Positions 36,219-59,142 of a DNA stretch of 64,000 nt are shown here, in pieces. The stretch's first letter is position 1; every line of letters begins with the position of its first letter. The position numbers were made by a program, and so were the translations under genes. The stretch is from an uncultured virus (IMG/VR IMGVR_UViG_3300021400_004415). Taxonomy: Duplodnaviria; Heunggongvirae; Uroviricota; Caudoviricetes. The notes under the pieces were generated by a model. That model worked only from the letters and a program-made list of their open reading frames with translations. It was not told the DNA's origin and ran no database searches. The DNA is taken from the IMG/VR virus record IMGVR_UViG_3300021400_004415, one strand, 5' to 3'.

Positions 36219-36368
36219 ATGTTTGACAAGTTAATGGAATTCTTCGGAAAGCTGGACTCCGATAAGGACAGGCTTTTCCCTAATATAGCCCGGTTCTTGG
36301 GCTGGCTCTGTATCGCGTTTGCGATTGTCTTTGCTATTATCACTTACAAGCAGTTCATGTCGATGTAA
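36219..36368 (+). CDS. Small TraL-like membrane protein
   Basis: 49 aa with one TM helix, between traK and traM. Confidence 0.5.
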   Translation: MFDKLMEFFGKLDSDKDRLFPNIARFLGWLCIAFAIVFAIITYKQFMSM

Positions 36369-36387
36369 TCAAAAAGGAGGAATTGTT

Positions 36388-42361: not shown

Positions 42362-42630
42362 TTTTCGAGTGAAAAGTGTTCGAGTACTTGTGTCAGGTTG
42401 AAGAAGACCTTCCTCTGTGAAGGTCGGAGGGTAGTCAGAACATTTCTTGATTCAAGGTTAAAGAGGGTTTGTTTCGTTATGCGGAGTCCGCGTCTCTCGA
42501 GTTCCTCTTTCACCTTGTCTCCTGATACCCATACGGCTTTCTTGGATTGTCCGGGTAGTGTATGGGAAAAGGTGAAGGAAGGAAAGACAGGTATGAATTC
42601 TCCGTCTGTGTCAAGTGGAATCGTATACAT
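42358..42630 (-). CDS. Excisionase-like small HTH protein
   Basis: ATGA overlap with int; 'ITKQTLFNLESRNVL..RKVFFNLTQV'. Confidence 0.6.
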   Translation of the reverse strand: MYTIPLDTDGEFIPVFPSFTFSHTLPGQSKKAVWVSGDKVKEELERRGLRITKQTLFNLESRNVLTTLRPSQRKVFFNLTQVLEHFSLEK

Positions 42631-42848
42631 GGTGCGTTTGCGTTTTAAAGTTCACACAAAAATACAAATAAAAACAAAGAAAACAAAAGAAAATTTTGTT
42701 ATTTGATATATTTGTTATATCAAAAAGCATTAGTTTATAGGTATTTACGCACGATTTTCAGAATTGCTTTTTTCGGAGGCTATGAAAAACGACGGAAAAA
42801 GCTCGAAAATCGGCCAAAAAATGTAGAAAACAGCGTTTTTTAGGGAAT

Positions 42849-42887
42849 AAAAAAACAGTCAGGATGAGTTTAAATCTTTCCTAACTG
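42849..42887 (-). terminator. Terminator downstream of the tRNA fragment
   Basis: Minus strand cagttagga..tcctgactg-ttttttt. Confidence 0.6.
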
Positions 42888-42912
42888 CTTGATATCTAAT
42901 ATTTTATCGGAG

Positions 42913-42954
42913 TGGGCGGTACTGGATTCGAACCAGTGACCCCCTGCTTGTAAG
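42913..42954 (-). mobile_element. att core: 3' half of tRNA-Val(TAC), in attP configuration
   Basis: Minus strand CTTACAA-GCAGG-GGGTC-ACTGG-TTCGAAT-CCAGT-ACCGCCC-A gives anticodon loop, T-arm and acceptor 3' strand; 5' half absent. Confidence 0.88.
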
Positions 42955-43089
42955 ATATCAACGCTTATCCGGTTAGGTCAAAGATTTTGTTTATTTTGAG
43001 TTTTTTCTTTTTTAAAAGGTAGTTTTCTTATTTAAACGAAGTAAATTTTAATTGTTTCGTTTAAAATGATTTTGTTTCCTTTGATTAAA

Positions 43090-43641
43090 TTAGACACTGT
43101 TTTCGGTGTTTTCAGTGATTCGGAATTCCAGGTTTACGCCGTATGCTTCCTTTATCTTTATAATATAAGATATTAATATGTCGTCGGTGTTGAACCATGC
43201 GAAGACAGCTCCCTGGGTGACACCGATTTTCTCTGCAAGTGCGTATTGGGAGTCTCCCTGGCTTGTGATGAAGTCCTTGATGAAGTCAAGGTCCCGCTTG
43301 TTTTCTTTTTTCTTTACTATATGGGGGAGGGTGACTATGTAGTTATCCTCTTCGGTATTCTTTTCTTTGGGTATGTAGCGGATTTCCAGTTTGTATCCGT
43401 TGCTCTCGATAAGGCGTTTCGCCTTTGAGAGTTTCATGTCGTCCCTTTTGAGCTGGATCCGCAGGGACTGTGGCGGCTGGCCGGTGGGTTTGCAGAGAGC
43501 CTCGGTGTTCAGGCCGACGGCCTTCATGAAGTCAAGCAGGAAACGAAGGTTTATTCCCGGGTATTGATACCACTTGCTTTGCACCCTTTTCTTCGGCCCG
43601 TTTTCCACTACCGTGACGTCGTTTGTCGGGTTGTTTTGCAT
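43090..43641 (-). CDS. Tandem HTH (Cro/CI-like) regulator
   Basis: Two similar halves: 'NLRFLLDFM..QLKRDDMKLS' and 'DLDFIKDFI..SQYALAEKIGVTQGAVFAWFNTDDILIS'. Confidence 0.75.
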   Translation of the reverse strand: MQNNPTNDVTVVENGPKKRVQSKWYQYPGINLRFLLDFMKAVGLNTEALCKPTGQPPQSLRIQLKRDDMKLSKAKRLIESNGYKLEIRYIPKEKNTEEDNYIVTLPHIVKKKENKRDLDFIKDFITSQGDSQYALAEKIGVTQGAVFAWFNTDDILISYIIKIKEAYGVNLEFRITENTENSV

Positions 43642-43945
43642 GGCTTTGAAAAAAATGTAAAAAATTTTTTGCAAACTATTGCATAATTAAAAAAAATTCG
43701 TTTCCTTTGCATCAGGAATTGTTGCGAATGACTTGAAAACGTTTTGTTCAATGTCCGCAATAGCGCGTTCGATGCAAATATACGTTTTTTTGTGTTGAAA
43801 TGCAAGAGGGCCGTTACCGGCCACCTACTATAAATGATTTGATAGTGCGCCCTGTACGGGCGACCGAAAACAGAGACTTTTGAAAGCGCTCCCTTGCTGG
43901 AGACCTAAAACAGATTTTAAGAGTAACACCAAAGCGGTTTACAAG

Positions 43946-44947
43946 ATGGCGGACGCCAGAACATATCAGAATCTAATCACCCCGGTGACTTCGGTACTTG
44001 CCTTTTTCGGTAAGTCTACTGAACATCGGGGTTATATGTATTTCTCCCCGTTCCATGACGAGACCAGCCCTTCGATGCACGTGAAGGTCAACGCCGACGG
44101 CACATGGGTCTGGGCTGATTTCAGCATGTCCGCATCCAATGGCAATCCGCTTGGCGGCGGTTGCCTGGATCTTGTCAAGGAACTTGCTTCAAGGGATGCC
44201 CGTTACAGCGAGCGTAAGCCTGTTGATATTCTTCGTGAGATTGCGGGTGCTACACCCTCTGAGGTCTACTCTTCCCGTTCCATTCGTTCCCGCGTCTCTT
44301 CCGAGACCGGGGCTGTTGTTGACAGCGTGAATGAAGGGGTTGTCCGCAGGTCTCTTCTTTCTTATGGCGTCTTCAAGCGCTGCATCCCTGAGTCCCTGCT
44401 TAACCGTTACTGCAGCGAGGTGTCTTATCACCCTGTGGCGAAGCCCGGAAGGAGCTTCTACGCCATCGGTTTTCGTAACGATGCTGACGGTTGGGTGATT
44501 CGTAGCGCTGGCAAGCGCGGCAAGCTCAATGTCGGTCACGCATGTGTGACTACGCTGGATAAAAACGGCGCCCACGTCAAGGGCGGCTCACCTTCTTCAT
44601 CGTCATTATACCTTTTCGAGGGCTTCATGGATTTTCTTTCCTTCCTTGCCTGGTGCGGTTACACCGTTCCCGGCGTGGACGCCGTTATCCTTCATTCGAC
44701 TTCCCTGGTCGGCATGGCTAAGGACTGGGTCCAGCAGCACGGCGAGGTGCGTTGTTTCTTTGACAACGATAAGGCCGGCACGGTTGCGACCGAGATTGTG
44801 CGTGGTTGGTGCGAGGAGAAGGATATCCGCTTTATGGACGGAAGGACGGCTTATAAGGAGCACAATGATATCAATGAGGCTTGGCAGGCCGTATGTGCCG
44901 TCAGCCGTGATGAACAGATGCACAGGACACTTAAACGTAGTAAATGA
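43946..44947 (+). CDS. Toprim DNA primase (TraP-like)
   Basis: 'MYFSPFHDETSPS', 'AIGFRND', 'LFEGFMDFLS', 'FDNDKAG', 'DINE'. Confidence 0.88.
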   Translation: MADARTYQNLITPVTSVLAFFGKSTEHRGYMYFSPFHDETSPSMHVKVNADGTWVWADFSMSASNGNPLGGGCLDLVKELASRDARYSERKPVDILREIAGATPSEVYSSRSIRSRVSSETGAVVDSVNEGVVRRSLLSYGVFKRCIPESLLNRYCSEVSYHPVAKPGRSFYAIGFRNDADGWVIRSAGKRGKLNVGHACVTTLDKNGAHVKGGSPSSSSLYLFEGFMDFLSFLAWCGYTVPGVDAVILHSTSLVGMAKDWVQQHGEVRCFFDNDKAGTVATEIVRGWCEEKDIRFMDGRTAYKEHNDINEAWQAVCAVSRDEQMHRTLKRSK

Positions 44948-45016
44948 CAGCCTTGTGGCGATTGGATAGAAAATATTTATTAACACAATTTATTAACCTT
45001 TTAATTTTTTACAGCT

Positions 45017-45853
45017 ATGGCTAAAGAAAACGAAAACACCCAGCTTGATGCTCAAATCGTTGAGCGTCTGAACAACCTCGATTGGGACGCCCTGAAGTCC
45101 GCCACCGGTATCACCCGTGCACAGGTCGAGGCCAACCCCGTTGTTGCCCGTCAGCTTGCTTACGGCAGCATGACCGATCTCGTCTACGGTCACACCGATG
45201 ACATTTCCGGTGCTTACTCCCTGCGTGCCATGCCCGGCGAAGAAGGCAAGCCCGGCAAGATCAAGGCTTACACCATTGAGCCTGAGAAGAAGAAGGGTCA
45301 GACCCTGTTCCTTTACGGTTCCCCGATTTACTCGGAGAAGGCAATCGCCAACCTCTTCGAGCGTACCAACATCAAGACCCTCGACAAGGACGGCAAGGAG
45401 ATCACCGTTAATATCCGTGCGAACGCCAACGCCGGTATCCAGGTGGCTGTAGCCGACCCTGAGACCAAGGAGAAGAAGTACTACCTCGTGTCTATCCACG
45501 AGCCCACCAACCGTATCATCGGCGTACCCGTGGAGGCCGTCGAGAAGATGCTGGCAAATGCCAAGGTCTACGGCGTGGAGCTCTCTGAGGAGCAGAAGAA
45601 ATCCCTTGTCAAGGGTGACGCCGTCCTCGTGAGCGGTTGCGTCAACAAGGAAGGTGAGACCTTCTCCGCCTGCGTCCAGTTCGATGCTGCAAAGCGCACC
45701 CTCGTGAACGCCAATCCTGCATGGCTCCGCCAGGCTCAGCGTGCTGGTGTTGACACCGGCATCAAGCCCCGTTCCGCCAAGAAGGAGGCTCCCGAACAGA
45801 AGGTCGAACCCAAGAAAGAGGGCAAGAAGACCGGCAGGAAGATGAGTCGTTAA
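45017..45853 (+). CDS. DUF4099/DUF3945-like conjugative element protein
   Basis: 'LDWDALKSATGITR', 'LVSIHEPTNRI', 'GVELSEEQKKSLVKG', 'FSACVQFDAAKR'. Confidence 0.75.
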   Translation: MAKENENTQLDAQIVERLNNLDWDALKSATGITRAQVEANPVVARQLAYGSMTDLVYGHTDDISGAYSLRAMPGEEGKPGKIKAYTIEPEKKKGQTLFLYGSPIYSEKAIANLFERTNIKTLDKDGKEITVNIRANANAGIQVAVADPETKEKKYYLVSIHEPTNRIIGVPVEAVEKMLANAKVYGVELSEEQKKSLVKGDAVLVSGCVNKEGETFSACVQFDAAKRTLVNANPAWLRQAQRAGVDTGIKPRSAKKEAPEQKVEPKKEGKKTGRKMSR

Positions 45854-45877
45854 TCACCGTCTTCAGGTCGAGCGAGC

Positions 45878-45908
45878 ACGGGAGGGGACAGTCTCCCCTC
45901 CCGTTTTT
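45878..45908 (+). terminator. Rho-independent terminator
   Basis: acgggagggga-cagtc-tcccctcccgt-tttt. Confidence 0.75.
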
Positions 45909-45933
45909 AAAACCTTTTAATCCCTCCTGACTT

Positions 45934-47091
45934 ATGAAACAGAACGAGACCAGCTCTTACGAGCGTCTGTGTAACCGTATGGCGGAGCTTTTCGTCGAGC
46001 GCTTTTCCTCTATCGTGGACGGCAACTGTCGTTCCATTATCGAGAATGTCTTTCCGCATCAGAATATGGATGGCGTCGTTTTCGGCGGCTCCAATGCTCT
46101 TACTACGGCCATGGTTGCATCGGGTCGCGGTTACGGTATCCCCGTGTGGTTTACTATGAACCGTGGCAACGAGATTGGCGTGAGTGTCAAGGCTGGTGAG
46201 CGCAGTGTCCCTATTGTCAACTATAATACTTCTTTCTATGAGAAGGAGACGGGGAAGCGTGTTTCTGATATGTCTCAGGAGGATTACGACAGACTCACTG
46301 ACGAAGAGAAGAATAAGTACGAGAAACGCCGTTACCTTCGTTATTATCCTGAGTTCAACATAACCCAGACGGACTTCGCGGAGGTTTACCCTGAGGAGTA
46401 TTCCCGTCTGGTGGAGTTCTTCGGTTACGATGTCCGTACCAAGGCGGATTTCGACATGTTGGATAAGCTGGTGAAGGAGGATAACTGGCTTTGCCCTATT
46501 GTGGAGAGCGCTGAGGTTGGGACGGCCGTTTACTCGGAGTCGTCCGATATCATCCGTATCCCTGCGAAGGCAAGGTTCGTTGACGAGCATGATTATTATA
46601 GTTCCCTGCTTCACGCCATGGCACGGGCGACGGGGAGCGAGATGCGTCTTGACCGGGTCGGCAGCCGTAAGGCTGTCATTGACTCGTTGCCCGGAGCGAT
46701 GGGTGCACAGTGTGCCGAGGCGTTGGTCTGTGAACTGGCTGCCGCCACTGCCGGAGCTGCTATCGGGTTCTCTCCGGACCTGAGTGACAGCAGTGCCCGG
46801 TTCCTTAAGTCCTGGATAGGTTACATCCAGGCGGAGCCTTCAGTCATCTATATGCTGGTGACTGAGGCGTCCAGGTCCGCTGATATGATGCTTGACGGCA
46901 TCGGTATCAAGCGCGAGAAGGGTCTTAACCTGACGGAGATTCTCTCCGACGTGGATAAGGCTGTGGAGGCTCGTAAGAAGCACGAGGAGAGGAAACAGAA
47001 GGGTGCGAAGACCTCCCACGGGAACAAGCGTTTCAAGGGCGTGAAAGCCTCTGGCGCTTCCCGTAAGATCAAGGGTTCGAAATCAATTTAG
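45934..47091 (+). CDS. ardC: ArdC-like ssDNA-binding/antirestriction protein with degenerate zincin domain
   Basis: 'FGGSNAL', 'PVWFTMNR..VKAGERSVPI', 'YPEFNITQTD', 'AVYSESSDIIRIP'; HExxH replaced by HAMAR. Confidence 0.85.
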   Translation: MKQNETSSYERLCNRMAELFVERFSSIVDGNCRSIIENVFPHQNMDGVVFGGSNALTTAMVASGRGYGIPVWFTMNRGNEIGVSVKAGERSVPIVNYNTSFYEKETGKRVSDMSQEDYDRLTDEEKNKYEKRRYLRYYPEFNITQTDFAEVYPEEYSRLVEFFGYDVRTKADFDMLDKLVKEDNWLCPIVESAEVGTAVYSESSDIIRIPAKARFVDEHDYYSSLLHAMARATGSEMRLDRVGSRKAVIDSLPGAMGAQCAEALVCELAAATAGAAIGFSPDLSDSSARFLKSWIGYIQAEPSVIYMLVTEASRSADMMLDGIGIKREKGLNLTEILSDVDKAVEARKKHEERKQKGAKTSHGNKRFKGVKASGASRKIKGSKSI

Positions 47092-47124
47092 TTCATTTAT
47101 GGACGTAATCAATATGAGGTAGTT

Positions 47125-48708
47125 ATGGCAAACGATAATTCATACGTTCCTTCCCCGGCGGATGTCTCTTCCGTCAAGGAAACCGCCTTGGTGAAGGCTT
47201 TCGCCGAGTCTCTTGGCGAGCTTTTCTTTGAAGACTCTATCCGCCACATAGGCGGACGTCCGGCGTTTTCCGCCCCGGACTGGAAGGAACTGTCATCTGT
47301 TGACAGGGGTTTCTTCTATGACAAGGCCCTCTTTTGGGCCAAGTACCTTGAGCAGCGTTTCGGCCTTGATGCTATTTTGGGCGGTGATGATATCCGTCCG
47401 GATTACCTCGAAGAGGATGTGGCCCGTCAGGTCCACGAGAAGAAAGCGTCCCGGCTTGTGGCTGAAGGGTGGGTGCTGGGGCCGACGACCGACTCGGAGA
47501 AGAAGACGTCCCCCACGTTGGTTTACTATGACGATCTCCCGTTCGGGGAAGTCCTTGAGTGTCGCCGTATAGGAGGCATTGTGAATGCAGGACTCAATAA
47601 CTTCGTTGAAGAGTACCAAAAGGGCATCGACACTGTTGACGAGCTCATTGACAGCAAGGGCAAGCGGTTCAATATCGGTTACGGTATGGCTGTCGAGGCC
47701 CTGTCCGATGTCCGTTCCCGTCTGGAGAGCGGTATTGGTTGGAAGAGCTCTTCCCGTCATTATAACTTCACCGGAGTATCCGGCTTTTATCCTAAGTTCT
47801 CCCGTGGCAGCGTGTCTATCATGCACGGTGACAAGACCGGCCTGCGGTTTTATCCCAAGGCTGATGGGAGTGTCGGTATGGATGTCCTTTCCGACGCTTT
47901 CTCGGCGTATCGTGACATGAGTCCTCTCAATGTCATCTGTGACCTCAGGGACGGGCGTTACTGCCTGGACGGCGCCAACCTGGATCTCCTTCGCAAGGAA
48001 ACCCACCAGGGACACGAGGTTATCTACGGGCTCCGTTATGGTGAGAGCGCGGCTTTCTGTATCCCGCAGGGTGATGATAGCAAGGAGGATTTGGCCCTGA
48101 TGCGCGGTCTTACCGAGCGTGAGAAGAACATACGCATTGTCGATGCAAGTGTCTTCTCCCAGGCTATCGAGAAGTGGATGGAGCAGACGATAGGCGGCGG
48201 TTTTGAGCCCGCCCAGACTCCGAAGATCATGCATTATCTCTTTGATGGTGAGCATGTCTATTCCGAGAGGGAGAAGTCCCTTGATATGGTTCGTACCGTT
48301 TCTCCGGAGGTAGCCTCCGACTGGAAGCTCATCGATGCTCTCCTTGAGGGTGGCGAGAGCCTCCGGTACGAGTTCCAGTCCACTTGTGGTATTGATTCCG
48401 GCAGGAAGTTCAAGTTCGCAGATGCCCTCTACCCTTCACCTCTTGTTAGCGAGGAAGCTCTTTTCCTGTGTTCCAAGAATGGTGCGCAGCAACACGGTTT
48501 CCTTACCGCAGTGAAGGGTGAGGTTTGTATGTATAAGAGTATGGACGGATTTCTTCAGGGTAGCGAGAAACCCATGAAGGTATTCCCTTCGGTCAAGGAC
48601 GGTCTCGATTACTTCCGCTCCATTGTGATGCGTAAGGAGAATATCATGCAGGGACGTAGTGAGGTGAGCCGTTACAACAAACAGAAAGGTATTGGTATTA
48701 ACAAGTAA
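47125..48708 (+). CDS. RyR-domain-containing protein
   Basis: 'VARQVHEKKASRLVAEGWVLGPTTDSEKKTSPTLVYYDDLP' resembles the RyR repeat (HExW..GWxYG..D..KxHPxLVPYxxL). Confidence 0.7.
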   Translation: MANDNSYVPSPADVSSVKETALVKAFAESLGELFFEDSIRHIGGRPAFSAPDWKELSSVDRGFFYDKALFWAKYLEQRFGLDAILGGDDIRPDYLEEDVARQVHEKKASRLVAEGWVLGPTTDSEKKTSPTLVYYDDLPFGEVLECRRIGGIVNAGLNNFVEEYQKGIDTVDELIDSKGKRFNIGYGMAVEALSDVRSRLESGIGWKSSSRHYNFTGVSGFYPKFSRGSVSIMHGDKTGLRFYPKADGSVGMDVLSDAFSAYRDMSPLNVICDLRDGRYCLDGANLDLLRKETHQGHEVIYGLRYGESAAFCIPQGDDSKEDLALMRGLTEREKNIRIVDASVFSQAIEKWMEQTIGGGFEPAQTPKIMHYLFDGEHVYSEREKSLDMVRTVSPEVASDWKLIDALLEGGESLRYEFQSTCGIDSGRKFKFADALYPSPLVSEEALFLCSKNGAQQHGFLTAVKGEVCMYKSMDGFLQGSEKPMKVFPSVKDGLDYFRSIVMRKENIMQGRSEVSRYNKQKGIGINK

Positions 48709-48719
48709 TATATAGCATT

Positions 48720-51539
48720 ATGATAGGACTGATTTCCGGCGATATCATCGCTTCCCCGTATAACAGTGTTCCTACTGCTGATTATTCAAGTATCTTCTTC
48801 CCGTTGTTCACTGCTGCGGAACACGTCAGCGTTGACATGGAGAAGCGCCGTTCTTCCGTCAGGAGTTACGAGCCCAAGATGACGACTAACAGTGCCGTAG
48901 CCCTTGCGGCTACGGAGTGGTTCCTTCACTCCGATAAGGAAGGAGAGTCGTTCCGTGATTTCCTTGGTGACCGGAACGTTTCTTCCGCACGTCTGCTGTC
49001 CGTTTGTGGCCCTATTGTGCGTCTGTCCGGAAGCGAGGCGGAGGCACGCGGCCTTGTGGGGCGTGTCTTCGCTGAGATGAAGCCTGACGGTTCTGCCGAA
49101 CAGGAAGCCGACATGCTCACCTCCCTTATGTGGCGCTTGAAGCAGAACAAGGGATTCAGCCGTGCTGACCTTGGTTCGTTCCTTGAGGAAGCCGGCTTCC
49201 CAGGCATCTATTCGGCGTCGCTCATCCGTCCTTTCCTTGAAGGGACGGTTACGTTCGGTGAGACGCCCGGACACCTTGTGCCGGGTGACGGTAAGAAAAG
49301 TGCCGACCCCGCGGCTTACATAGTCGCTGCCGCCGTGGCTCTTGCGTCCGGCGAGTCCTGGGAAGAATGTGTTCGTCGCGCCACGGCCATGGGCGGTGAC
49401 GCCTCCCTGACGGCTTCCCTCACCGGCGCCCTGGCGGAGTTCCGTTACGGTGGTGTCCCCGATGTCATATCCGTCCGCGCCAAGGATTACCTTGACGACA
49501 CGCAGAGGGAGACTCTTAACGCCGCCGACAGGCGGGCCGTGTCTACCTCCGTGGGTGAAGGCACGTCTATTGACGAGTTGAACGGCCGTCAGGTCGATGT
49601 CATCCGTATGCCGGGTATGCAGTCGGTCTTTGCCGTGGAGCCCGGGGACGTGGAGATGATAGAGGCTATCGAAGCTTCACAACTCTCCATGGGTAATAAC
49701 TACAGGGTCGTTTCTCCGAAGGAGTTCCGTTCTGTTTATGAGGAGATGTCGCGGCAGCTTGATGCCGACGGCAAGGTTCTTTCGGGCGTATATGTGGAGA
49801 ATCATCGTCCGGAGATCCGGAGCCTTTGGCTCCAGGATGGCAAGCTGCGTTCCAGCAGCACCCGTGACGGTGTCCGCGTCGTATCGAAGGTCAGCCAGCC
49901 TCTTCCTTCGAAGGCTGTTCGCCAGCGTGTCTTCTCGGAGTTCCAGCAGTTCAAGGCGGAGGTGGAGAGGATTAGGACTGAACTTGAGAAGTCCGTCGAG
50001 TACAACCCGGCGGAATACGGCGGCAGGCACCTCTCTTTCCCCTCTGCACGTTATCCGGTAGTGTATGACTCTTATGTTGAGATTTACGAGAACGGTATCT
50101 GCAGGGGCCGCTGCGGCCTTAACGCTGATGGTCTGTTCTCGGTGTTCACTAACTCTCCTGAGTACACTTTCCATGGTGAAGGGATAGAGGGAGTGCTTAA
50201 CACGAGGGAGTTCTTCACCAAGGGAATGAATATGAAGCAATGCCTTGCAGCGCTGAATTTCTTCATTCTTGATATCGGTCTTTCTCCTGATGAGGAAGAG
50301 GCCAAGCACCTCAAGGATAACGACGAGGAGGCAATCGCAATTCGTAAGAAGTACGGTTCTAATTACGATGCCGTCCTGAAGGATATGGGTGTGTACTTTA
50401 CCCGCAAGGAGGCCGAGGATGAGAGAAGGGCTCACCCCGAGGACACGGCGGAGATTAAGCTTCTTCCCGAAGCCGTAACCCCTGCGGTGGCTACCCTGTC
50501 TCCGGAGGAGAAGGCCGCACGTGAGGCACGGCGGGCGGCCAGCGAGGCGGATTACGCATCGCGGGGAGTCACCGACCTGGTTACGCTCAGGGACTCCGAG
50601 GCTCATAAGGGTTCCGTGTTCACTATCGGACACTCCAACATGGAGATTGATGATTTTATCAAGAACCTCAAGCGTCATGGTATCGAGGTGCTTTGTGACG
50701 TGCGTTCGTTCCGTCAGTCACGATTTGCGCCGCAGTTCAATGAGGCGGCGTTGGAGAAGGCCCTTGCTGCGGCCGGCATAGAATACGAGGTGTTTGACAG
50801 TCTTGGCGGCCAGCAGAAGGGTTCCACCAGCAGGGTGTTGACCTATGACGAGGTCGTGAAGAAGTCCGCATTCAAGAATGATATTGACGTCTTACGTAGC
50901 AATGCCCGTAAGGGCCTCCGTTTCGCTCTCATGTGTAGTGAGGGTGATGCACTGGAGTGTCATCGTATGCTCCTTATCGGTCGCGCACTGGCTCATCCGG
51001 AGTACTCGCATCCTCAGGAGACCGCGAAGGAATTGGCAAAGCTTGAGAAGCTCCAGGAAGCGGTTGCCGTTGCTGAGAAGGCTGCTACTCCTTACCAGGA
51101 GCGCAAGACCCGCAAGGAACTTCGTGAGCAGCTGGAGAAGATTGACAAGAGCCTGGTCGAAAAGAGGAACGAACTGGAGAAGCGTATCAAGAATCTTCAT
51201 CATGACAACCTCATGGCTATCGAAGATGCTCATAAAAAGCTGGATTCATTCAATGAATCAAGGAAGTATACTCCTGTTGATGTGGAGCATATCGCCCGGA
51301 GGGGGTATGTCGTTTCCCAGGAAAGGCTCGAAACCGACCTTCAGGAGCGTTACGAGCTCGTCTATAAGGACGCTGTATCTAAACTGAAGGATACTGACAA
51401 GAAGCCTTCGTTGCTGGAGTTCGCTTTCAGCGCTGCCGAGGAGTCCATACGTGATAAGCAGTCTGCAAAGAAACAGGTGCGCCGCAGGCTGGCCGAGACG
51501 TCCAAGAAAAAGGCTTACAGAAAGGGATTTAAAAAGTAG
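48720..51539 (+). CDS. Fusion: degenerate ADP-ribosylglycohydrolase (DraG/ARH) + unknown middle region + DUF488
   Basis: 'MIGLISGDIIASPY', 'SWEECVRRATAMGGDASLTASLTGALAEFRYGGVP'; DUF488 motifs 'FTIGHSN', 'DVRS', 'LGG', 'LMCSEGDALECHR', 'VEHI'. Confidence 0.8.
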   Translation: MIGLISGDIIASPYNSVPTADYSSIFFPLFTAAEHVSVDMEKRRSSVRSYEPKMTTNSAVALAATEWFLHSDKEGESFRDFLGDRNVSSARLLSVCGPIVRLSGSEAEARGLVGRVFAEMKPDGSAEQEADMLTSLMWRLKQNKGFSRADLGSFLEEAGFPGIYSASLIRPFLEGTVTFGETPGHLVPGDGKKSADPAAYIVAAAVALASGESWEECVRRATAMGGDASLTASLTGALAEFRYGGVPDVISVRAKDYLDDTQRETLNAADRRAVSTSVGEGTSIDELNGRQVDVIRMPGMQSVFAVEPGDVEMIEAIEASQLSMGNNYRVVSPKEFRSVYEEMSRQLDADGKVLSGVYVENHRPEIRSLWLQDGKLRSSSTRDGVRVVSKVSQPLPSKAVRQRVFSEFQQFKAEVERIRTELEKSVEYNPAEYGGRHLSFPSARYPVVYDSYVEIYENGICRGRCGLNADGLFSVFTNSPEYTFHGEGIEGVLNTREFFTKGMNMKQCLAALNFFILDIGLSPDEEEAKHLKDNDEEAIAIRKKYGSNYDAVLKDMGVYFTRKEAEDERRAHPEDTAEIKLLPEAVTPAVATLSPEEKAAREARRAASEADYASRGVTDLVTLRDSEAHKGSVFTIGHSNMEIDDFIKNLKRHGIEVLCDVRSFRQSRFAPQFNEAALEKALAAAGIEYEVFDSLGGQQKGSTSRVLTYDEVVKKSAFKNDIDVLRSNARKGLRFALMCSEGDALECHRMLLIGRALAHPEYSHPQETAKELAKLEKLQEAVAVAEKAATPYQERKTRKELREQLEKIDKSLVEKRNELEKRIKNLHHDNLMAIEDAHKKLDSFNESRKYTPVDVEHIARRGYVVSQERLETDLQERYELVYKDAVSKLKDTDKKPSLLEFAFSAAEESIRDKQSAKKQVRRRLAETSKKKAYRKGFKK

Positions 51540-51621
51540 CTTTGTTATAGAACACGACATTCATAACAATGCTCAGGGAAAAGATAAAACTATTGGTCGC
51601 AAACGCTAAAACTTGATTGAT

Positions 51622-52914
51622 ATGACACTGATGACATCAGCAATCGTTGGACTTGGTCTTGCTATTGCAAATACCACTCTCAGAAGCGGGGTTTTGAAGA
51701 AGACAGGTGGTCGGTTTGGTTGGAGGAATTTTCTTTCCGCCCTTCCTGTTTTCATTGCGCCTTTCATGGCTGGTTTCAGCTTTGCTGGTATTGTTGCCAC
51801 TGCGCTTTTTGCGATGCCTCTTATTATAAACTCTGTTTCTTCCATCAGGAAGATAAACAAGGTACGCAAGGATAAGCGCGGGGAGAAGGTGAACGCCTAT
51901 GAAGAGGCGTCGAAAGCCGTCAAGGCGAAAGAGAAGAGCATTGAGAAGGCTGAGAAGCGGGGAGAGATATTGAATAATCTCAAAGGCCTTAAAATCTTCT
52001 CTGTCGCGGCCTTGTCCGGAGTCCTGGGCTGGGCTATTTCTAAGAACAGCGCACGGCTTGCCGATATGAAGAATTCCATTCAGGATTTGTACCTGCAGAA
52101 AGGTGCACGTGAACTGGCCCTGAAAAACATCAAGTCGGTAGGGGAGAAGTTTATCTCTGTCAGCGAGGTCACTCTTCCCGATGGAAGTAAGCGTTATGAG
52201 GTCGGTAGGGACCTCAAGCCGGCGCAGGTGGCGGAGATAAAGGAATACCTTTCTTCGAAGCTCGGAGTAGATGTCGATGACCCCAAGTATTTTGCCGTGT
52301 GCGGCTTGAATAATAACGATCTGGGCTTCAAGTATGGTGCAGACCGTGTCGCAATGTATTATGACAGGAAAGAGGCTTCTTTAAAGTCTGTTGGTGCTCC
52401 TGTGGATGAAATGGTTTTGACTTACGGCAAAGGTAAAAACGCCAGTGAGATGTCCGTTGTTGATTATGTCAATAAGGCTAATGAGTCAATGAAATCCAAG
52501 GGTCTTCAAAATTACAAGGAGGTTGCTGAAAACGGTTTCCTCGGTGGTCTTCACATGTGTGTCCTTGGCAACAGCGCCGTGGCCCTTTCCATGAACGATG
52601 TCGTGCTTGCTCACGCTGTGGCTGGCAATGACGGCCGTATCAGGTTGCAGGGTAATGTCGGTATGCAGGGGTCTGGCGCACAGAAGCGCCTTGTGTCGAA
52701 GATCAGCGGGTTGCTCAAGAGTGCTGGCACCATGCAGGAGTGGTGCGATATAGCCAAGGGTATCATCCTGCAGCCGGAGAATATCAAGGCCCTGAATAAC
52801 GGTTTGCTTGACAAGAAGAATGAGATTACTTCTTTCAAGGCCCGGAAGAATATTTTGAAAAATATCATCAACGCCCCGAAAAAGAACCTTAAGACACTTG
52901 GAAGGGCCCTTTAA
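51622..52914 (+). CDS. Hypothetical membrane protein with basic tail
   Basis: Several N-terminal hydrophobic helices; long ORF in the co-oriented cluster. Confidence 0.7.
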   Translation: MTLMTSAIVGLGLAIANTTLRSGVLKKTGGRFGWRNFLSALPVFIAPFMAGFSFAGIVATALFAMPLIINSVSSIRKINKVRKDKRGEKVNAYEEASKAVKAKEKSIEKAEKRGEILNNLKGLKIFSVAALSGVLGWAISKNSARLADMKNSIQDLYLQKGARELALKNIKSVGEKFISVSEVTLPDGSKRYEVGRDLKPAQVAEIKEYLSSKLGVDVDDPKYFAVCGLNNNDLGFKYGADRVAMYYDRKEASLKSVGAPVDEMVLTYGKGKNASEMSVVDYVNKANESMKSKGLQNYKEVAENGFLGGLHMCVLGNSAVALSMNDVVLAHAVAGNDGRIRLQGNVGMQGSGAQKRLVSKISGLLKSAGTMQEWCDIAKGIILQPENIKALNNGLLDKKNEITSFKARKNILKNIINAPKKNLKTLGRAL

Positions 52915-52926
52915 AATTGTTTTATT

Positions 52927-54354
52927 ATGATTGAGAAGTTTACCTTACGGTTTCCTGATTCCTCTCTTAATGGAGAGGGTCCTAACAACCTCCTTTACAG
53001 GGCATCCGGTCTTCTCCGGGCCTTCATGGATCCGGATAACATTGGCGAATCCGGTGTACCGATAGATTATGTAATGAACGAACTTGATTATCATGGTGAC
53101 CGGAGTGGGGTTCGGGACTTGGAATCGTCGGTCATTGATGACATTGTGGTTGGTAGGAACACTATTACTTTCACTGTGAAAGATAACTATTCTGGATTTA
53201 ATATCCCCCAGTATCTTGCTGATAAATTAAAAGTAGGCTTAGGTTATAGTTATACGGTGTTATTTGATGATGGGCTGAAAGATGATCGTGGATATCGTTA
53301 TGTCGAGCCGGTGCATTTTTTCCCAAATGTTTGGGGAAACCGTGGTTCTGATGGCCTGAGAGCCATTATCCGCAAGCCGGAATACGAATTCCTTGTATCA
53401 CTTGATGACCTGTGCAGGACAGGAAAGGTCCGTAGAGATACAGTCATGGAAAGCGTGTCTTCGGCGGAAGCCGTGTATGAGGTTTATGGTAATAAGCCTG
53501 AGCCGCTTTTGACGTTATCTATAATGGAGGAATCAGACAAGGGTTTCCTTGTTTATATCAAGGAAAGCGGTGATTCTTCAATTTTGCAGCCACTCTTTGT
53601 TGGAAACAATACTTTCTTTGAATCTAAGGGTTCTTTGGATGAAGAACATGATATTCTTGTTGGTCCTTGTCCGGTGCTTGATGGTGAACTTGTCCTTCAG
53701 AGGATAACGGATTGTGCTACTCAGTCAAAAGATGCCAGTTTCAAGGTTGATAAGTTCGGTAGGGAAATCGGCTCAGTGAGTTTGTCCGAAATATCTTCGA
53801 AGATTAAGCCTTCAGAACTTTTTGAGAACATCTCTTATTTTGATGCAATGGAGACAGCCCGTGAGGTTGGATTGATGCTTGAAAAAGCGGAAGGGGAGCA
53901 GGAGCATTATTCGGCTACATTGAGTGATATCTTTTGTCAACAGCTTGAAAAGCGTATGAAGGACAGGATTGACGGACAGTGTCGTTTAGCTCGGTTTGAT
54001 GAGTTTGTTTCTCCGGAGGTTAAACGTGCTGCTTCGTATGAAATGGCATTTTTGAAAGGTATTGAAGGCTTATCTGGTATCAAGAGGGATTCTTCTCTTA
54101 AGGGGAGTCATGTTGCGTCGGTTGACGGGTATGATGTTGTCGTCAAAAGGCATCCGGACGGTAGTCATTTCGTTTCGCTTGTGAAAGATGGCCATGGCGT
54201 TGGTTTTCTAAACGCTGTCCAGGAGGGCGAGATTCCTGCCGAGGAGATTGTCTCCAAGGCGTATCAGAAAGCTGTGAAAAGGGATAAGGCTTTGAAGAAG
54301 TTCGAGAGTTTTAAGTCGAAGATTGGTTTGGGAAGTAAGCATTTGAAAAGATAA
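52927..54354 (+). CDS. Hypothetical protein with basic tail
   Basis: 475-aa ORF; C-terminal motif shared with 47125..48708. Confidence 0.75.
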   Translation: MIEKFTLRFPDSSLNGEGPNNLLYRASGLLRAFMDPDNIGESGVPIDYVMNELDYHGDRSGVRDLESSVIDDIVVGRNTITFTVKDNYSGFNIPQYLADKLKVGLGYSYTVLFDDGLKDDRGYRYVEPVHFFPNVWGNRGSDGLRAIIRKPEYEFLVSLDDLCRTGKVRRDTVMESVSSAEAVYEVYGNKPEPLLTLSIMEESDKGFLVYIKESGDSSILQPLFVGNNTFFESKGSLDEEHDILVGPCPVLDGELVLQRITDCATQSKDASFKVDKFGREIGSVSLSEISSKIKPSELFENISYFDAMETAREVGLMLEKAEGEQEHYSATLSDIFCQQLEKRMKDRIDGQCRLARFDEFVSPEVKRAASYEMAFLKGIEGLSGIKRDSSLKGSHVASVDGYDVVVKRHPDGSHFVSLVKDGHGVGFLNAVQEGEIPAEEIVSKAYQKAVKRDKALKKFESFKSKIGLGSKHLKR

Positions 54355-54357
54355 GAC

Positions 54358-55008
54358 ATGGATGATTATCAATACGAAGAGTCTCAGCGCATAGCGTCTG
54401 AACTTCAAAATGAGGATATTCCGAGTTCCGTATTAACTCTTGCAAAATACGGTTCTTATGGGGAACATTTTCTGAATTCCATAGCCAAACTTTTCCATGC
54501 TCGTGAGGTCAGTGAAAATAAAGCTGCAACTGGGATGAAGCAATGGGATAAACTGACTGACGAAGAAGAGGTCCCATATATTAAAGAAGCGGTCAATTGG
54601 GCTGATTATTTTGAGGCGTGTAGCGGGATGTCCATTGATTCAGCCCTTAAGTGTCTTGATAATGGTGAGCCTGGTTTATGTGACAGTTTTGCTAAATTCA
54701 TGGTAGAGGAAAAGGGTTATTCTGAAGAACAGGTTTCTGATTTTATTTCAACAATGTCAGTGTATCGTTTTGATGCGCTGATGTGTTACGATGAAAAAAG
54801 TCCTTTGAAATTATCCGAAGACAGCAAGGCGCTTATTTCGTCAGACATTGACAGGCTTTTTGAGTTAGGTAAAGAAAGACAGTCTATTAAGGTTAGATTT
54901 AGTGCGGATATGGCGAATAACCCGAAGAAAAAATCTGCACTTGATATGTATAAGCATTTCTTAGGACTGAAGAACCGAGGCAAACGTAAGGGGAATATCC
55001 CCAGCTGA
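54358..55008 (+). CDS. Hypothetical protein, partial paralog of the N-terminus of 47125..48708
   Basis: 'FLNSIAKLF..QWDKLTDEEEVPYIKEAVNWADYFE' versus 'FAESLGELF..DWKELSSVDRGFFYDKALFWAKYLE'. Confidence 0.7.
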   Translation: MDDYQYEESQRIASELQNEDIPSSVLTLAKYGSYGEHFLNSIAKLFHAREVSENKAATGMKQWDKLTDEEEVPYIKEAVNWADYFEACSGMSIDSALKCLDNGEPGLCDSFAKFMVEEKGYSEEQVSDFISTMSVYRFDALMCYDEKSPLKLSEDSKALISSDIDRLFELGKERQSIKVRFSADMANNPKKKSALDMYKHFLGLKNRGKRKGNIPS

Positions 55009-55041: not shown

Positions 55042-55062
55042 AGGCGGCCTTTTGGGCCGCCT
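55042..55062. terminator. Hairpin between convergent operons
   Basis: aggcggcc-ttttg-ggccgcct. Confidence 0.65.
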
Positions 55063-55080: not shown

Positions 55081-55968
55081 TCATAACTCAAAACAATATC
55101 CTTCCTGCTCATAACAGCAGTGATGGCGGTGGATGGATTCGAGAAGGGCTGAAAGCTCCTTCGAGGATGTATTTCCATAACCGGCATCAATCTGGTCTTT
55201 ATATAGGTTTCTGTTGACTGACTGCCCGCTTAGGCGGGTTTCATAGTCAGGAGGCAGGAGCGCCCGAACTTTATCCCCCATGCGGCTCTTATACATGGAT
55301 TCGTAAATACTTACGCCGCAGAGGTCCAGATCTGGGAAATACAGCACGTTATTTTGCGTCTGCTCCAGAAATTTCATGACATCTTCCGTATAGGGATATC
55401 GTTTGAGTATGAAGCAGTGTGACGCTTCGTAGTCGGTAAGTCCTACATGGTTTAACCAGTTATGATTGAAGAACAGACGGGAGTTTTCCACCATGATGAT
55501 TGTCCACTTTGGCGGCAGTTGAAGTCCTCTTCCGTCATCTGTTATCATGAGTCCCGTCTGGGGAGTTATCGTGAAAATCGCGTCATGGTTCACAACCTTT
55601 ATATTGGAAGCCGGTATGATGGCAAAGCCGCTCTCAGAGGGCCCGGTGGAGCCCTCCTTGGAGTTCCCGCAGGCACGCACTTTCTCTTCCCTTGTATATC
55701 TTTCTCCGCTTGCAAGGCGCAAGGCATCGTCAAGGCTCTGGAGGAAGTTCGACTGTCGGGCGCACTCCTGGAGGAACCGGTTGGTATCAATGACGGAGTA
55801 GTAAAGTCTTGATCGGCGGCGGGTCGTCACTACGGCCCCGCTGGTGATAAGCCTGCTTATGAGGTCCTGGCTCTCCAGGGAGGAGAACCGGCCGGAGGGC
55901 AGGGTCTCCCCGTCACGGAGAGCGATAAGTAGGGCTACGGTGCCCCGTCTGTAAGTATTATCATTCAT
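55081..55968 (-). CDS. jetD: Wadjet JetD/MksG-like Toprim nuclease
   Basis: 'IIMVEN' Toprim glutamate, 'YFPDLDLCG' DxD, terminal 'EQEG'; overlaps the SMC gene. Confidence 0.75.
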   Translation of the reverse strand: MNDNTYRRGTVALLIALRDGETLPSGRFSSLESQDLISRLITSGAVVTTRRRSRLYYSVIDTNRFLQECARQSNFLQSLDDALRLASGERYTREEKVRACGNSKEGSTGPSESGFAIIPASNIKVVNHDAIFTITPQTGLMITDDGRGLQLPPKWTIIMVENSRLFFNHNWLNHVGLTDYEASHCFILKRYPYTEDVMKFLEQTQNNVLYFPDLDLCGVSIYESMYKSRMGDKVRALLPPDYETRLSGQSVNRNLYKDQIDAGYGNTSSKELSALLESIHRHHCCYEQEGYCFEL

Positions 55969-58900
55969 ATTCTTCCTCCTTTCGCTGGTATTCCGCGTCA
56001 AGCTCGATGAAGTGATTCTTCGTACCGCCGTTGGGGTTGTCTTCCGTCCAGGTGTTATAGGAGTAGTCTACGCCCCAATGGGTGTGGTGCTGACCGCAGA
56101 ATATCATCCTGATATGGGCTTGCTCTGCGAAGTAGGTTAGGGCCTTGAGGTTATGCGTCGAGATATCGTTCATCTCGTCGATAGGGATGGGTAGGTAGAC
56201 GTTCTTATTACCACCGGCATTGGCTACGAGATGCATCAGCGTCATGTTAATCATGGCCTTACAGAGGATGGCCGTAGACCTTGAACCGACGTTATTGAAT
56301 CGCATCATGTTACGGTGCACGTTGCCGTTCTCCGTAACGGACAGCTTCACGTCGAACATCTCTTCCAGGGGGATGGATTCCTGATGGTAGGACTCCAGTA
56401 GGTTATGCAGCCGTTCAAGGTAATCCAACGCCTGCTTGTTGACGTTCTCTGCATCTGAACTGATGAAGAGGTTCTCGTTGCCGATGATAGAGCCGTTGGT
56501 CTTCCAGAAATCTGTCATTTCCCGGAAGAGGATCATGATATCCACGGTCGCTTGTTCGTCGATGGATATCTCTATATTCTGGCAGACGTCAGTGTTGTTG
56601 TATTTCTTAAGGAAGGCGTTGGCTTTCCTGCAGCAGGTCATCAGCAGGGAGATATTCTCTTCCACAGGCACCATATCCTGCATCACACCGGCGAACTCGC
56701 CGAGCCAGACCTTCTCGTTGGTGCGGATATGGTTCTCAAGGACGGTCTCTCCGGACGAGGTCTCCTGCAGGAGGTCCCTGAGCCTATCGCTGACGGCGAT
56801 GAAGTCATCGAGGGATGACAGGCTGTCCCCGTAGCCTATACCAAGGGCGAAGGTATCGACGCCCTGGTGGAGCATGCCTTCAGCATATAGTCCCCTCACG
56901 AGGCCGGGGATGGCCTTCTCCAGCTCTTCTATGCGGCGGCTGGCGAGGTTGTAGTCGTTGATGATATTCGAGATTGAGGAATCGGTCGTTATCGCCTTCA
57001 CCTCTTCTATGGCAGTAGCGATAGAAGGGTGACTCTTGATAAAGCCGTTTCCGGCACCAATCTCAGTCTGCAGCTCACTTATAGTGCTGTCAATAGTCTT
57101 TATCTTGGAGTTGATATCTTCAACGGAATGGTTTTTCTCCTGACTGAGCTTGGCACGTTCACCGGAGTTAGTAGAGATGGTCTTGTTGATTTGAGAGATG
57201 GCCGTCTTGGTATCGCCTTCTTTGGAGAGGTAATCCTCATAATCGGAAATGATTTTAGGATAGTTATCCAGCTCTTCAAGGACGTGCTTTGCGGATTCCA
57301 GTTCTTCGTTGATTTCAGCGATAAGCTGCTCAGTGTTCTTATCATTGCCACGGAGCTTCCTATAGTAGGCTTTCGTCTCTTCAATCTTCTGCTCCAGCTC
57401 ACTCTTAAGGTCTATAACTTTCTTGTTACGGTTCTTATTGACCTCTTTTATCTGGTTGTCGAGCTTTTCCGTCCGGGTCCGTTCTTCCTCTTCGAGGGTT
57501 TTAATCTCTTCATGCTTACGCTTCTCAAGGAACGCTTTACGGTCGCGTTTTGCCGTGTAATCGGCAATGGCGGCCTTCTCTCTTTCGGAAAGCTGTTTAT
57601 CCGGCAGTCCGGAGGGAATCCTTTCAGACCTTACCTTGGTGATAACGCCGATAAGCGTCTCACCAAAAGTGTCGCCGGACTTGGAGGAGAGCAGACCGTC
57701 AGAGACGTCTGTGAGCGTCCCGGCGGCGGTGTTCTCCCGAACGGAGCCTATGACAAGGTCAAAGGTGTCATCAAGGAGCCCCTCTTCCTCGAAGAGCTTT
57801 TCATAGCGCAGTTCCACTTCTTCCTTCTTTCCTTTGTAGGTGCTGTTAAGCTGCGCAATTTCCTTGTTAATCTCCTGGACCTTGTTGTTACGTTCATTGT
57901 CAATGAGTGTCTGCTGTTTGCGGTAGGAGTTGCGGATATCCTCAATGGCACGGTTTTCCTCACTGGCCTCGAATTCGTCAAGCTGCTTTTCAAGGCGGGT
58001 TTTGTCCGCTTCCCAGATCGAACGGTTGCAGGCCCACTTGTATACGTTATCGATGTTGTCGCATTCAGCGTAGGTCTTCTTCCTTGCGTTAATGTTATTC
58101 ATTCTTTCCTGGATAGCACCCTGTTCTATGCGGAGCTTGTCAAGCTTGGCTTCGTATTCCTTATCCTTGAGCTCCCAGGCTTTGGTGATTTTAGTGCTGT
58201 TCTCTTCGAGCCCGGTCTTCTCCTCTGTTAGGTCGTTGACCTTTTTGTTGGCAGCGTTCATGGCGTAGGATATGAGGCCAGGGATGGATTGCAGTCCCGC
58301 CTTTTCCCTGCTGAGCTGGTCAATTGGCTCAAAGACCTTCTCCGCGTAGCGTTCAAGCTGAGATTTGCCGTCTTTCCCCTTTATAGTCGCAAGCTCGATA
58401 TCATGCTTTCTCTGGATGAAGTCCGATAGGTTCTTACGGTGGGGAAGGAGGTTGATGCTCGTCTTACCGCTCTGCGTCTCGGCGACGACGGCGCTGACAA
58501 GGCTCTCCTTGAGAGCCGTCTGGGAGAGCGGCTTGTTCTTCAGTATGACGGACATCAGCGGACGGAGGGTGTCCTTCTTGGATTCCTTGGTCCCGCTTAG
58601 TTTGGAAGCCGTGGTCTGCTTCATGATGGAGTAGTCCTTCGAGTAGGCGTCATCGACGCCAAGGAGCATACGGTTAAAGGACGTACGGTTGTAGGTTGCT
58701 CTCGCAAAGCAGGAGTTGCCTTCAATGCGTTTGATGTTTTCTTCCAGCTCGGCGTATGAGATGACAGAGATGTTTTTCTCCTCGTCGGTGTACAGCCAGT
58801 CTTCTTTGAAGGTGGCATTAACGATGGAGAACGAGAGCTCCTGGTACCTGTTCTTTGACAGGATGGCGGTGTATTCCGCTCCGAAATCGTTCTCTATGAC

Positions 58901-59131: not shown

Positions 59132-59142
59132 ACGGTTATTCG

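Follow-up and report, generated by a model that had tools for sequence, protein, structure and literature searches.

An array of eight genes on a Bacteroidota-type element encodes proteins with relaxase-like basic C-terminal tails, a possible signal for transfer along with DNA

Effectors of the Agrobacterium VirB/VirD4 system carry positively charged C-terminal translocation signals. Proteobacterial conjugative type IV secretion systems (T4SSs) deliver plasmid-encoded proteins, and passages in PMC8406263 and PMC11288057 describe signals that can be C-terminal and positively charged. The primases TraC1 and SogL are transferred to recipients (PMC5512222; a passage in PMC8406263 also treats primase transfer), and ArdC, MPTase and Toprim proteins have been proposed to be delivered along with DNA (PMC5512222). 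Here we analyse the 64,000-nucleotide stretch of the IMG/VR record IMGVR_UViG_3300021400_004415 (called the window, at its full length), which contains an array of eight genes, g1 to g8, at positions 43946-55008. A first-pass annotation of this array had invoked positively charged C-termini as T4SS signals and co-transferred primases, and both precedents are supported by passages in PMC8406263, PMC11288057 and PMC5512222. Substrates of the F, pKM101 and RP4 systems, as presented in PMC11288057 and PMC8406263, carry an unstructured, net-positive C-terminus on unrelated proteins, and the array does likewise. Our tentative reading, which we place a little below an even chance, is that the array encodes split, polyvalent-protein-like establishment and anti-defence proteins with a relaxase-like basic C-terminal recruitment signal. 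The tail that they share with the relaxase suggests that the array proteins may enter the recipient together with the DNA.

The array consists of separate open reading frames (ORFs), eight of eight on the plus strand. We describe each tail by net20, the number of Lys and Arg minus Asp and Glu residues over the last 20 positions.

43946-44947, plus strand: g1, Toprim-type primase-like protein, 333 residues; tail 44885-44944, net20 +3
45017-45853, plus strand: g2, DUF3945 protein, 278 residues; tail 45791-45850, net20 +5, low-complexity Lys/Glu/Gly
45934-47091, plus strand: g3, ArdC-like protein, 385 residues; tail 47029-47088, net20 +7
47125-48708, plus strand: g4, RyR-repeat-domain protein, 527 residues; tail 48646-48705, net20 +4
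48720-51539, plus strand: g5, 939 residues; tail 51477-51536, net20 +9
51613-52914, plus strand: g6, 433 residues, N-terminal hydrophobic segments; tail 52852-52911, net20 +5
52927-54354, plus strand: g7, 475 residues, without a known family; tail 54292-54351, net20 +6
54358-55008, plus strand: g8, 216 residues, without a known family; tail 54946-55005, net20 +6

The eight tails have a mean net20 of 5.6, compared with 0.27 (standard deviation 2.9) for the 51 other ORFs of the window (Mann-Whitney p = 1.2e-5). As a background set we used 300 ORFs of at least 120 residues from 400 kb of a genome of the same genus (G007). Their mean is 0.30 (standard deviation 2.65), with 19.7% at +3 or above and 5% at +5 or above. 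Given a background share of 0.197, finding eight of eight tails at +3 or above has a probability of about 2e-6, and the array mean was reached by 0 of 200,000 resamples of eight. Chance is ruled out by these resamples and by the comparison within the window. The weakest tail is that of g1, whose net charge is +3 in the last 20 residues and falls to +1 when 30 are counted. The eight plus-strand ORFs and C-terminal strings listed in the first-pass annotation are all present in the sequence, and the Lys/Arg-rich tails that it describes stand out from the background, with values of +3 to +9. The N-terminal domains had been called largely unrelated, in agreement with the distinct Pfam families that we find across g1 to g5 and the lack of any for g6 to g8. 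That no protein has a Sec or lipoprotein signal holds for all eight, with the caveat that g6 has long N-terminal hydrophobic stretches and resembles a membrane protein.

Basic tails might also be a mere by-product, arising from A-rich gene ends that serve the next start, from a habit of mobile elements or by chance. Three junctions of the array are very tight (11, 12 and 3 bases), and, relative to the bodies, the tails have more A at third codon positions and use AAA for a larger share of their Lys codons, all of which speaks for such an origin. The other four gaps, however, measure 33-80 bases, and g8 has no co-directional gene downstream, being convergent with a jetD-like gene. In G007, the 100 ORFs with a co-directional ORF within 20 bases have a mean net20 of -0.04, the others 0.50 and 0.39 (p 0.93), so that genes closely followed by a co-directional gene do not have more basic tails. 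Lys and Arg account for 53 of 160 codons in the tails (last 20 codons), compared with 442 of 3426 in the bodies, and 11 of the 17 tail Arg codons are CGN, indicating a bias at the amino-acid level, beyond A-rich DNA. Selection acting on the protein therefore explains the tail bias, and an origin in overlap with the start region of the next gene is ruled out by the G007 spacing control together with codon use. Other window proteins are near background, as are 578 other ORFs around the 40 relaxase loci surveyed below (mean 0.68, 7% at +5 or above). We regard a by-product as very improbable and as largely refuted already.

We compared the array to its homologues. A search of 5.8 billion proteins, which reaches only relatives sharing short exact words, returned few homologue clusters (six for g3, four for g4 and two for g7), consistent with the earlier statement that g4 to g8 are not standard conjugative transposon (CTn) genes. 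A DNA search of 401 genomes of the order under study gave a sole match, an incomplete genome with an identical piece (G001); the other seven hits were matches of 30-54 bases only. Pattern scans of species genomes with g5, a g4 alignment and a g2 alignment found no related array. The array is rare. A metagenome scan found one identical locus (L024) and one that is diverged and syntenic (L025). Among the 11 plus-strand genes of the L025 array, g1 to g7 have homologues at 29-74% identity, alongside four additional genes, and 11 of its 11 proteins end basic, with net20 values of +2 to +7. Homologues keep the tails, the loss of which would, by the first-pass annotation, have refuted its reading: net20 is +2 to +7 in 16 of 16 comparisons. 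In most of these comparisons the last 30 residues are at most as identical as the body; they are more so for g7 with P0060 (70% versus 34%), g4 with P0005 (60% versus 49%) and g3 with L025 (70% versus 62%). Charge is kept while tail identity mostly does not exceed that of the body, which points to charge, rather than sequence, as the conserved property.

A MAFFT alignment of the 19 tails from the window and L025 hinted at a K.Y.[RS]F[VI]-like core. In a leave-one-out profile, 15 of the 19 tails reach scores attained by at most 2% of 300 background tails. Against their own shuffles, only g8 and m8 win clearly, with g2 and g4 marginal. The profile otherwise fails against shuffles, and what we claim to be shared is therefore composition together with placement rather than a positional motif. 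A rule drawn up post hoc (Lys or Arg beside Gly in the last 8 residues, with at least four Lys or Arg in the last 14) selects 5 of 8 proteins in the window, 5 of 11 in L025, 23 of 40 relaxases, 39 of 578 other ORFs and 15 of 300 background ORFs; it mostly re-measures charge.

The array tails resemble the end of the relaxase, which itself has to traverse the T4SS. The window contains no relaxase; the relaxase module lies outside it. In G001 there is one PF03432 match, and this relaxase gene leaves contig C90 and resumes on contig C105 with a 16-base exact overlap. A full-length natural record of the relaxase, P0154, ends in ...LKSGRTNKRRTIYKKKY and has a net20 of +7, and relatives at 45-47% identity have +8 and +3. 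The G001 module also holds ParA-like, ribbon-helix-helix (RHH) Mob-like, SSB-like (SSB, a protein that binds single-stranded DNA) and NrdD-like genes and a coupling protein. At L059 628-3015 (plus strand), a 795-residue anaerobic ribonucleotide-reductase-like ORF, called from its translation alone, lies between the relaxase and coupling protein genes. The longest contigs recorded for members of the relaxase 90% cluster measure 54,939 and 132,908 bases. The figure of 54,939 is also that of g1, g3, g4, g5, g7, g8 and the JetB-like and ParA-like proteins, and 132,908 also that of variants of g5, g7, g8, TraG, the integrase, the methylase and a large adhesin-like protein. Because these figures coincide, we infer that two further assemblies carry the relaxase module and the array on common contigs.

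Relaxases with basic ends are frequent in the order. Among 91 representatives from a search with the C-terminal half of the relaxase, 80 have at least 370 residues, and 34% of these have a net20 of +5 or above, compared with 5% of the background (p 0.003). We next consider a survey of 40 relaxase loci with 10 kb on either side (L094-L133), drawn from PF03432 matches in 43 of 301 genomes. The 40 relaxases have a mean net20 of +6.35, and 30 of them reach +5 or above, again compared with 5% of the background; in L120 the ORF taken as relaxase is a 118-residue mis-assignment. A typical relaxase end is a run of Lys and Arg followed by Gly, a hydrophobic residue, any residue, and Leu or Met. Families of neighbouring proteins were assigned from their bodies, with the last 30 residues removed, and gave the following net20 values:

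DUF3945, n = 7: 6, 6, 6, 5, 3, 3, 2
DUF6371/Zn-ribbon, n = 6: 6, 5, 5, 4, 4, 0
Toprim primases, n = 7: 6, 5, 4, 4, -1, -1, -2
Topoisomerase III, n = 4: 6, 5, 2, 2
ArdC, n = 1: +1
Coupling proteins, n = 13: +9 to -5

Values of +3 or above are found in 6 of 7 DUF3945 proteins, 5 of 6 DUF6371/Zn-ribbon proteins, 4 of 7 Toprim primases and 2 of 4 topoisomerases III. Other basic-tailed neighbours are mostly regulators (sigma factors, AraC, cyclic-nucleotide-monophosphate-binding), with two coupling proteins and several proteins of other Pfam families or of none. The relaxase-like end recurs on element primase and DUF3945 homologues across the order, and in the lineage of the window it is found on every array gene.

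These families also give substance to a different explanation, namely that the tails are non-specific nucleic-acid-binding extensions that hold the protein on single-stranded DNA (ssDNA) or the nucleoid. The proteins would then not pass through the T4SS and would instead be made early in the recipient, from a putative leading-region-type island. Across the order, each basic-tailed family (relaxase, Toprim primase, topoisomerase III, DUF3945) works on DNA or binds it, and conservation of charge alone suits electrostatic DNA binding as well as it suits a signal. The eight co-oriented genes, including an ArdC gene, recall the leading-region anti-defence islands on the T strand (Samuel et al. 2024, PMC11541004), where anti-restriction-type genes on a conjugative element are likewise co-oriented; the model put forward there is early transcription from the incoming strand, without protein transfer. 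The word stem 'Bacteroid' is absent from the main text of PMC11541004. The intergenic region upstream of g1 also folds as ssDNA (43675-43945, plus strand), with a minimum free energy of -41.6 kcal/mol compared with -28.5 +/- 3.7 for 200 shuffles (z -3.5). Other DNA-binding proteins of the same element, which have no need to travel, are however free of the tail: net20 is +1 for the integrase, +1 for the Xis-like protein, -2 for the helix-turn-helix (HTH) regulator, 0 for the C5 methylase and 0 for the RecD2-like helicase, and the RHH Mob and SSB-like proteins beside the relaxase also lack a basic tail, as read by eye. The tail is moreover found on members without an evident DNA function, the hydrolase-like g5, the putatively membrane-anchored g6 and the ferredoxin-like g7. 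We consider a plain DNA-binding role, the main alternative, somewhat unlikely.

Short polybasic ends are also a common means of binding acidic lipids. Through their tails the proteins might localise to the donor's anionic inner membrane or its transfer apparatus, where they would act as assembly or processing helpers and would not be exported. Both g6 and an L025 gene (8077-8832, with a weak MFS_4 match) encode hydrophobic N-terminal segments, as this explanation would have it. In addition, the seven CTn-type coupling proteins of about 670 residues in the survey, encoded beside polybasic relaxases, have acidic ends in seven of seven cases (net20 -1 to -4) and would attract basic tails in the donor. 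These seven proteins are, however, mutually homologous and amount to about one observation, and across 12 loci no significant anticorrelation links the tail charges of coupling protein and relaxase (Spearman -0.40, p 0.20). Anti-restriction and primase functions are also needed in the recipient rather than at the donor membrane. A role confined to the donor is in our view improbable.

We favour a recruitment signal because the tail alone unites proteins that have nothing else in common, because the relaxase, which the coupling protein must recognise, shares it, because other DNA-binding proteins of the element do not have it, because it is conserved as charge, and because there is a proteobacterial precedent in positive C-terminal signals and in transferred primases and other plasmid proteins. 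Each array protein bears a flexible Lys/Arg-rich tail like that of the element's relaxase, and the coupling protein would read it as a translocation signal. Once in the recipient, the array proteins would prime replication, bind or protect ssDNA, and blunt defences ahead of element gene expression. We infer the tail's function as a translocation signal, its reading by the coupling protein and the role of each protein in the recipient.

Several points weigh against a recruitment signal. The tail could be a plain DNA-binding extension, as relaxase, primase, topoisomerase and DUF3945 proteins all handle DNA. The K.Y.[RS]F[VI]-like positional motif does not rise above shuffles, leaving nothing beyond composition. 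Some coupling proteins, which are not substrates, also have basic ends in the small mobilizable elements (+8 and +9). The single ArdC of the survey and the ArdCs of the small elements have no basic end. The membrane-protein-like g6 looks like an awkward T4SS substrate. The coupling protein in G001 is cut by the contig end before its C-terminus, G001 contains a second VirB4-like gene, and the link between relaxase and array follows from equal longest-contig figures, not from sequence seen. A search of a mainly open-access literature turned up neither a case of protein translocation through a T4SS of the Bacteroidota type nor any work on basic C-terminal ends in relaxases of Bacteroides.

Several array members look like establishment or anti-restriction proteins, judged by their families: a Toprim primase, a DUF3945 protein, an ArdC-N plus MPTase protein, and a protein combining a weak ADP-ribosylglycohydrolase match with DUF488. 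The start of g1, an ATG at 43946, agrees with its 333-residue L025 homologue, which is 71% identical and has the same TLKRSK ending. The protein matches Toprim_2 (E 1.6e-9, 38.4 bits for a cut-off of 22.1) and has a weak dnaG domain match; Pfam detects no zinc-ribbon family in it (the CHC2 type was looked for), whereas two Toprim primases of the survey have one. It is likely that g1 primes complementary-strand synthesis. The g2 protein matches DUF3945 (E 2e-9), a family typical of such elements, and has a weak likeness to the topoisomerase C-terminal repeat. Its body is 76% identical to that of the L025 homologue, and its tail only 37%, with insertions and deletions, yet again at +5. In g3, matches to the ssDNA-binding ArdcN domain (E 7.7e-10) and to the zincin MPTase-PolyVal (E 9.8e-17), both past their cut-offs, predict an ArdC-type anti-restriction protein. 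The tail pattern ..KG[VI]K.S....K.K[GS]KS[ILF] is kept in six g3 homologues (47-76% identity, net20 +5 to +7). The AlphaFold2 model of g3 (predicted local distance difference test, pLDDT, 48) is too poor to inform.

The g4 protein matches Pfam RyR (E 3.8e-7), and its profile matches RyR repeat structures, the best being 6uhi_A (E 4e-21); the domain resembles small bacterial structures annotated as 'putative ryanodine receptor'. Four g4 homologues have net20 values of +2 to +4. The layout of g5 comprises a weakly ADP-ribosylglycohydrolase-like N-terminal part, DUF488 at residues 643-753 (E 7e-18) and a charged helical C-terminal part. Its ADP_ribosyl_GH match (E 1.2e-5, 25.6 bits) lies under the cut-off of 26.2 and covers residues 202-244 only; the 1025-residue L025 homologue has the same two families (ADP_ribosyl_GH at 21.9 bits) and a net20 of +6. 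With a family match below threshold, g5 may remove ADP-ribose marks. A sequence search found no solved relative of g5. For g6 there is no Pfam, NCBIfam or PHROG match and no usable Atlas result; it is probably membrane-anchored, as its hydrophobic segments suggest, and its L025 homologue is 41% identical with a net20 of +4.

The AlphaFold2 model of g7 (pLDDT 71, predicted template modelling score 0.62) places residues 438-466 in one long helix, with the last nine residues, in a flexible basic end, at lower confidence. Its N-terminal domain is ferredoxin-like in a generic sense only (VIA-align Z 6.4, root-mean-square deviation 2.5, 76 aligned residues), and Foldseek found no match to the model at E of at most 0.001. 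Atlas scores for g6 and g7 are at most 0.78, with models of pLDDT 0.44-0.47. Compared with its homologue P0060, the body of g7 is 34% identical and its last 30 residues 70%; g7 has no PHROG match. Pfam, NCBIfam and PHROG contain no family match for g8, of which residues 38-91 have a weak likeness to the g4 family in its N-terminal part, at an hhalign probability of 57%.

The array lies to the right of a set of transfer genes of the Bacteroidota type, which span 30.2-38.4 kb of the window, and of an integrase and a regulator gene:

30915-33470, plus strand: TraG, P-loop/VirB4-type
34474-35550, plus strand: TraJ-like
35576-36214, plus strand: TraK
36319-37563, plus strand: TraM
37567-38412, plus strand: TraN/DUF4138
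41171-42361, minus strand: tyrosine integrase, followed by a small Xis-like ORF and then the HTH gene
43090-43674, minus strand: HTH regulator gene, divergent from the array (Pfam HTH_3, E 1.2e-5)
43675-43945, plus strand: intergenic region upstream of g1
45880-45908, plus strand: between g2 and g3, a G+C-rich hairpin with a T run after it, resembling a terminator or attenuator by eye
55043-55061: G+C-rich hairpin between g8 and the convergent jetD-like gene, by eye from the sequence

On this gene content the array appears to belong to a Bacteroidota-type conjugative element (large, of the gut Bacteroidales type, conjugative or mobilizable). A look-alike of the HTH gene, whose tail is non-basic, is found at the equivalent place in L025 (5241-5771, minus strand); by eye, the C-terminal strings of the two look similar. 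A consensus terminator scan did not list the hairpin at 45880-45908, and promoter and terminator scans of the window gave counts no higher than in shuffles. We found no convincing direct repeats as att sites, and no tRNA in the search alongside.

The array may nonetheless be a unit of its own. For TraG and the integrase, taken as exact sequences, the longest contig measures 86,209 bases, not 54,939, so that across the window gap 42361-43946 the figure in another assembly changes from 86,209 on the left to 54,939 on the right. At L025 4583-6054, the left neighbour of the array is a chromosomal alpha-2-macroglobulin-type gene, without an integrase. Because of these figures, this flank and the second VirB4-like gene in G001, the array, the Wadjet-like genes and the mobilization module may form a mobilizable element adjoining a tra-bearing element, rather than one unit with it. 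The earlier reading of a delivered protein repertoire is thus supported in part. The Bacteroidota-type element and the establishment-like content stand, its refuting conditions of tails at background level or absent from homologues did not come true, and the like tails of the element's relaxase and of 30 of 40 relaxases of the order lend indirect support; the array and the tra genes may, however, belong to separate elements.

Other features of the window were noted alongside. The 11-mer AACCTTTTAAT has two exact copies, at 44995-45005 and 45911-45921 (plus strand), each about 12 bases upstream of a start codon (g2 and g3), and with one mismatch allowed there are five matches in the window for 1.2 expected. 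The genes g1 to g5 have A at just 4-8% of third codon positions and about 55% G+C, whereas in g7 and g8 42% of these positions are T and G+C is about 46%. The array is compositionally mixed, which suggests that its distal genes were added from another source. Directly downstream of the array, a diverged Wadjet/Mks-like four-gene set occupies 55081-61174 (minus strand), whose members are a weak match to JetD, a 1056-residue DUF3584/JetC-like protein, a match to MksE and a family-less 435-residue protein; a RecD2-type helicase at 61641-63935 lies beyond it. The stretch 13333-16504 contains a type II restriction-modification pair, formed by the C5 methylase (13333-14430) and a restriction enzyme (14427-15509; PADLOC REase_II, E 2e-116), and an AbiEii-type gene (15698-16504, minus strand). 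These three genes are defence cargo on or beside the element. A run of small genes at 16.9-28 kb (minus strand), including a YqaJ-type exonuclease (25816-26838) and a radical-SAM-like gene, looks like a phage or recombination module within the same island.

Shared C-terminal marks of other kinds were found elsewhere. Near distant ArdC homologues in three genomes there are small mobilizable elements that encode a coupling protein, a relaxase, an ArdC and an integrase:

L049 8124-11769, minus strand: small mobilizable element
L050 3568-12348, plus strand: small mobilizable element
L048 10071-16863, minus strand: small mobilizable element

In these, the end R.[DE]E[LI]..[ILV]R.[KQ][ND] is common to relaxase, ArdC, integrase and a small acidic protein (8 of 10 proteins, compared with 0 of 300 background tails), and it is precisely in this stretch that ArdC and integrase of one small element show their strongest local similarity. 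A co-directional array in genome G136 (L046 6954-19759 and L047 646-2334, both plus strand, that is G136:C1 at about 402-417 kb) encodes a Toprim protein, an ArdC-MPTase-MutS_I protein, an ArdC-MPTase protein, a cell-wall hydrolase with glucosaminidase and M23 domains, and unknown proteins. Seven of its 13 proteins end in Arg and four in Arg-Arg, several with ..TH.G..RR, compared with 8.7% and 1.3% in the background. No more than 60 kb away are a VirB4 gene and a coupling protein. The marks in the small elements and in G136 fit co-travelling proteins that share an end with their relaxase, as leads rather than tests. A bolder proposal would make the Lys/Arg-rich C-terminal tail a general ticket to Bacteroidales coupling proteins, carried by relaxases, primases, DUF3945 proteins and this array of 8-11 proteins, with other lineages marking co-transferred sets by other shared motifs such as R.[DE]E[LI]..[ILV]R.[KQ][ND]; we find this somewhat unlikely.

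Conjugative elements drive gene flow among gut Bacteroidales. Should the tail act as a recruitment signal, it would be a sequence-readable mark of co-transferred proteins, here a primase, an anti-restriction protein and the anti-defence candidates g4 to g8. It would also offer a handle for probing protein delivery in Bacteroidota and would account for the recurrence of a relaxase-like end on unrelated element proteins. Were the tail a general ticket, the set of proteins injected during conjugation by gut Bacteroidota could be read from sequence. If the tail merely binds DNA, the array remains a compact source of candidate establishment genes.

How, then, does the array compare with described delivery systems? 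Known T4SS substrates include DNA-metabolism and anti-stress proteins that aid the incoming element, according to passages in PMC11288057 and PMC8406263, and the array content is similar. The systems with known signals are proteobacterial, whereas the machine of the array is of the Bacteroidota type, with TraG, TraJ, TraK, TraM and TraN/DUF4138. Signals in the F system are heterogeneous, being C-terminal or internal, while the array has the same kind of tail on every gene. SogL (ColIb-P9/R64), TraC1 (RP4) and the ArdC of IncW/IncN plasmids have counterparts in the Toprim primase-like g1 and the ArdC-like g3, but the sequences are only distantly related, and the Bacteroidales versions are putative transfer substrates. 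The array shares with the polyvalent proteins (Iyer et al. 2017, PMC5512222) a vocabulary of ArdC-N with MPTase, Toprim primase and T4SS context. A word search of the main text of PMC5512222 found no mention of RyR, DUF3945, DUF488 or ADP-ribosylglycohydrolase. The logic proposed in that source, proteins delivered with DNA at entry, is the same as the one that we propose for the array. Polyvalent proteins, however, combine 2 to 15 domains in one polypeptide (PMC5512222), whereas the array consists of separate genes, each with its tail, and two domains are combined only in g3 (ArdC-N plus MPTase) and g5 (two families). The array would thus be a variation on the known positively charged T4SS signals and on the polyvalent-protein repertoire, with the functions split into separately tailed genes.

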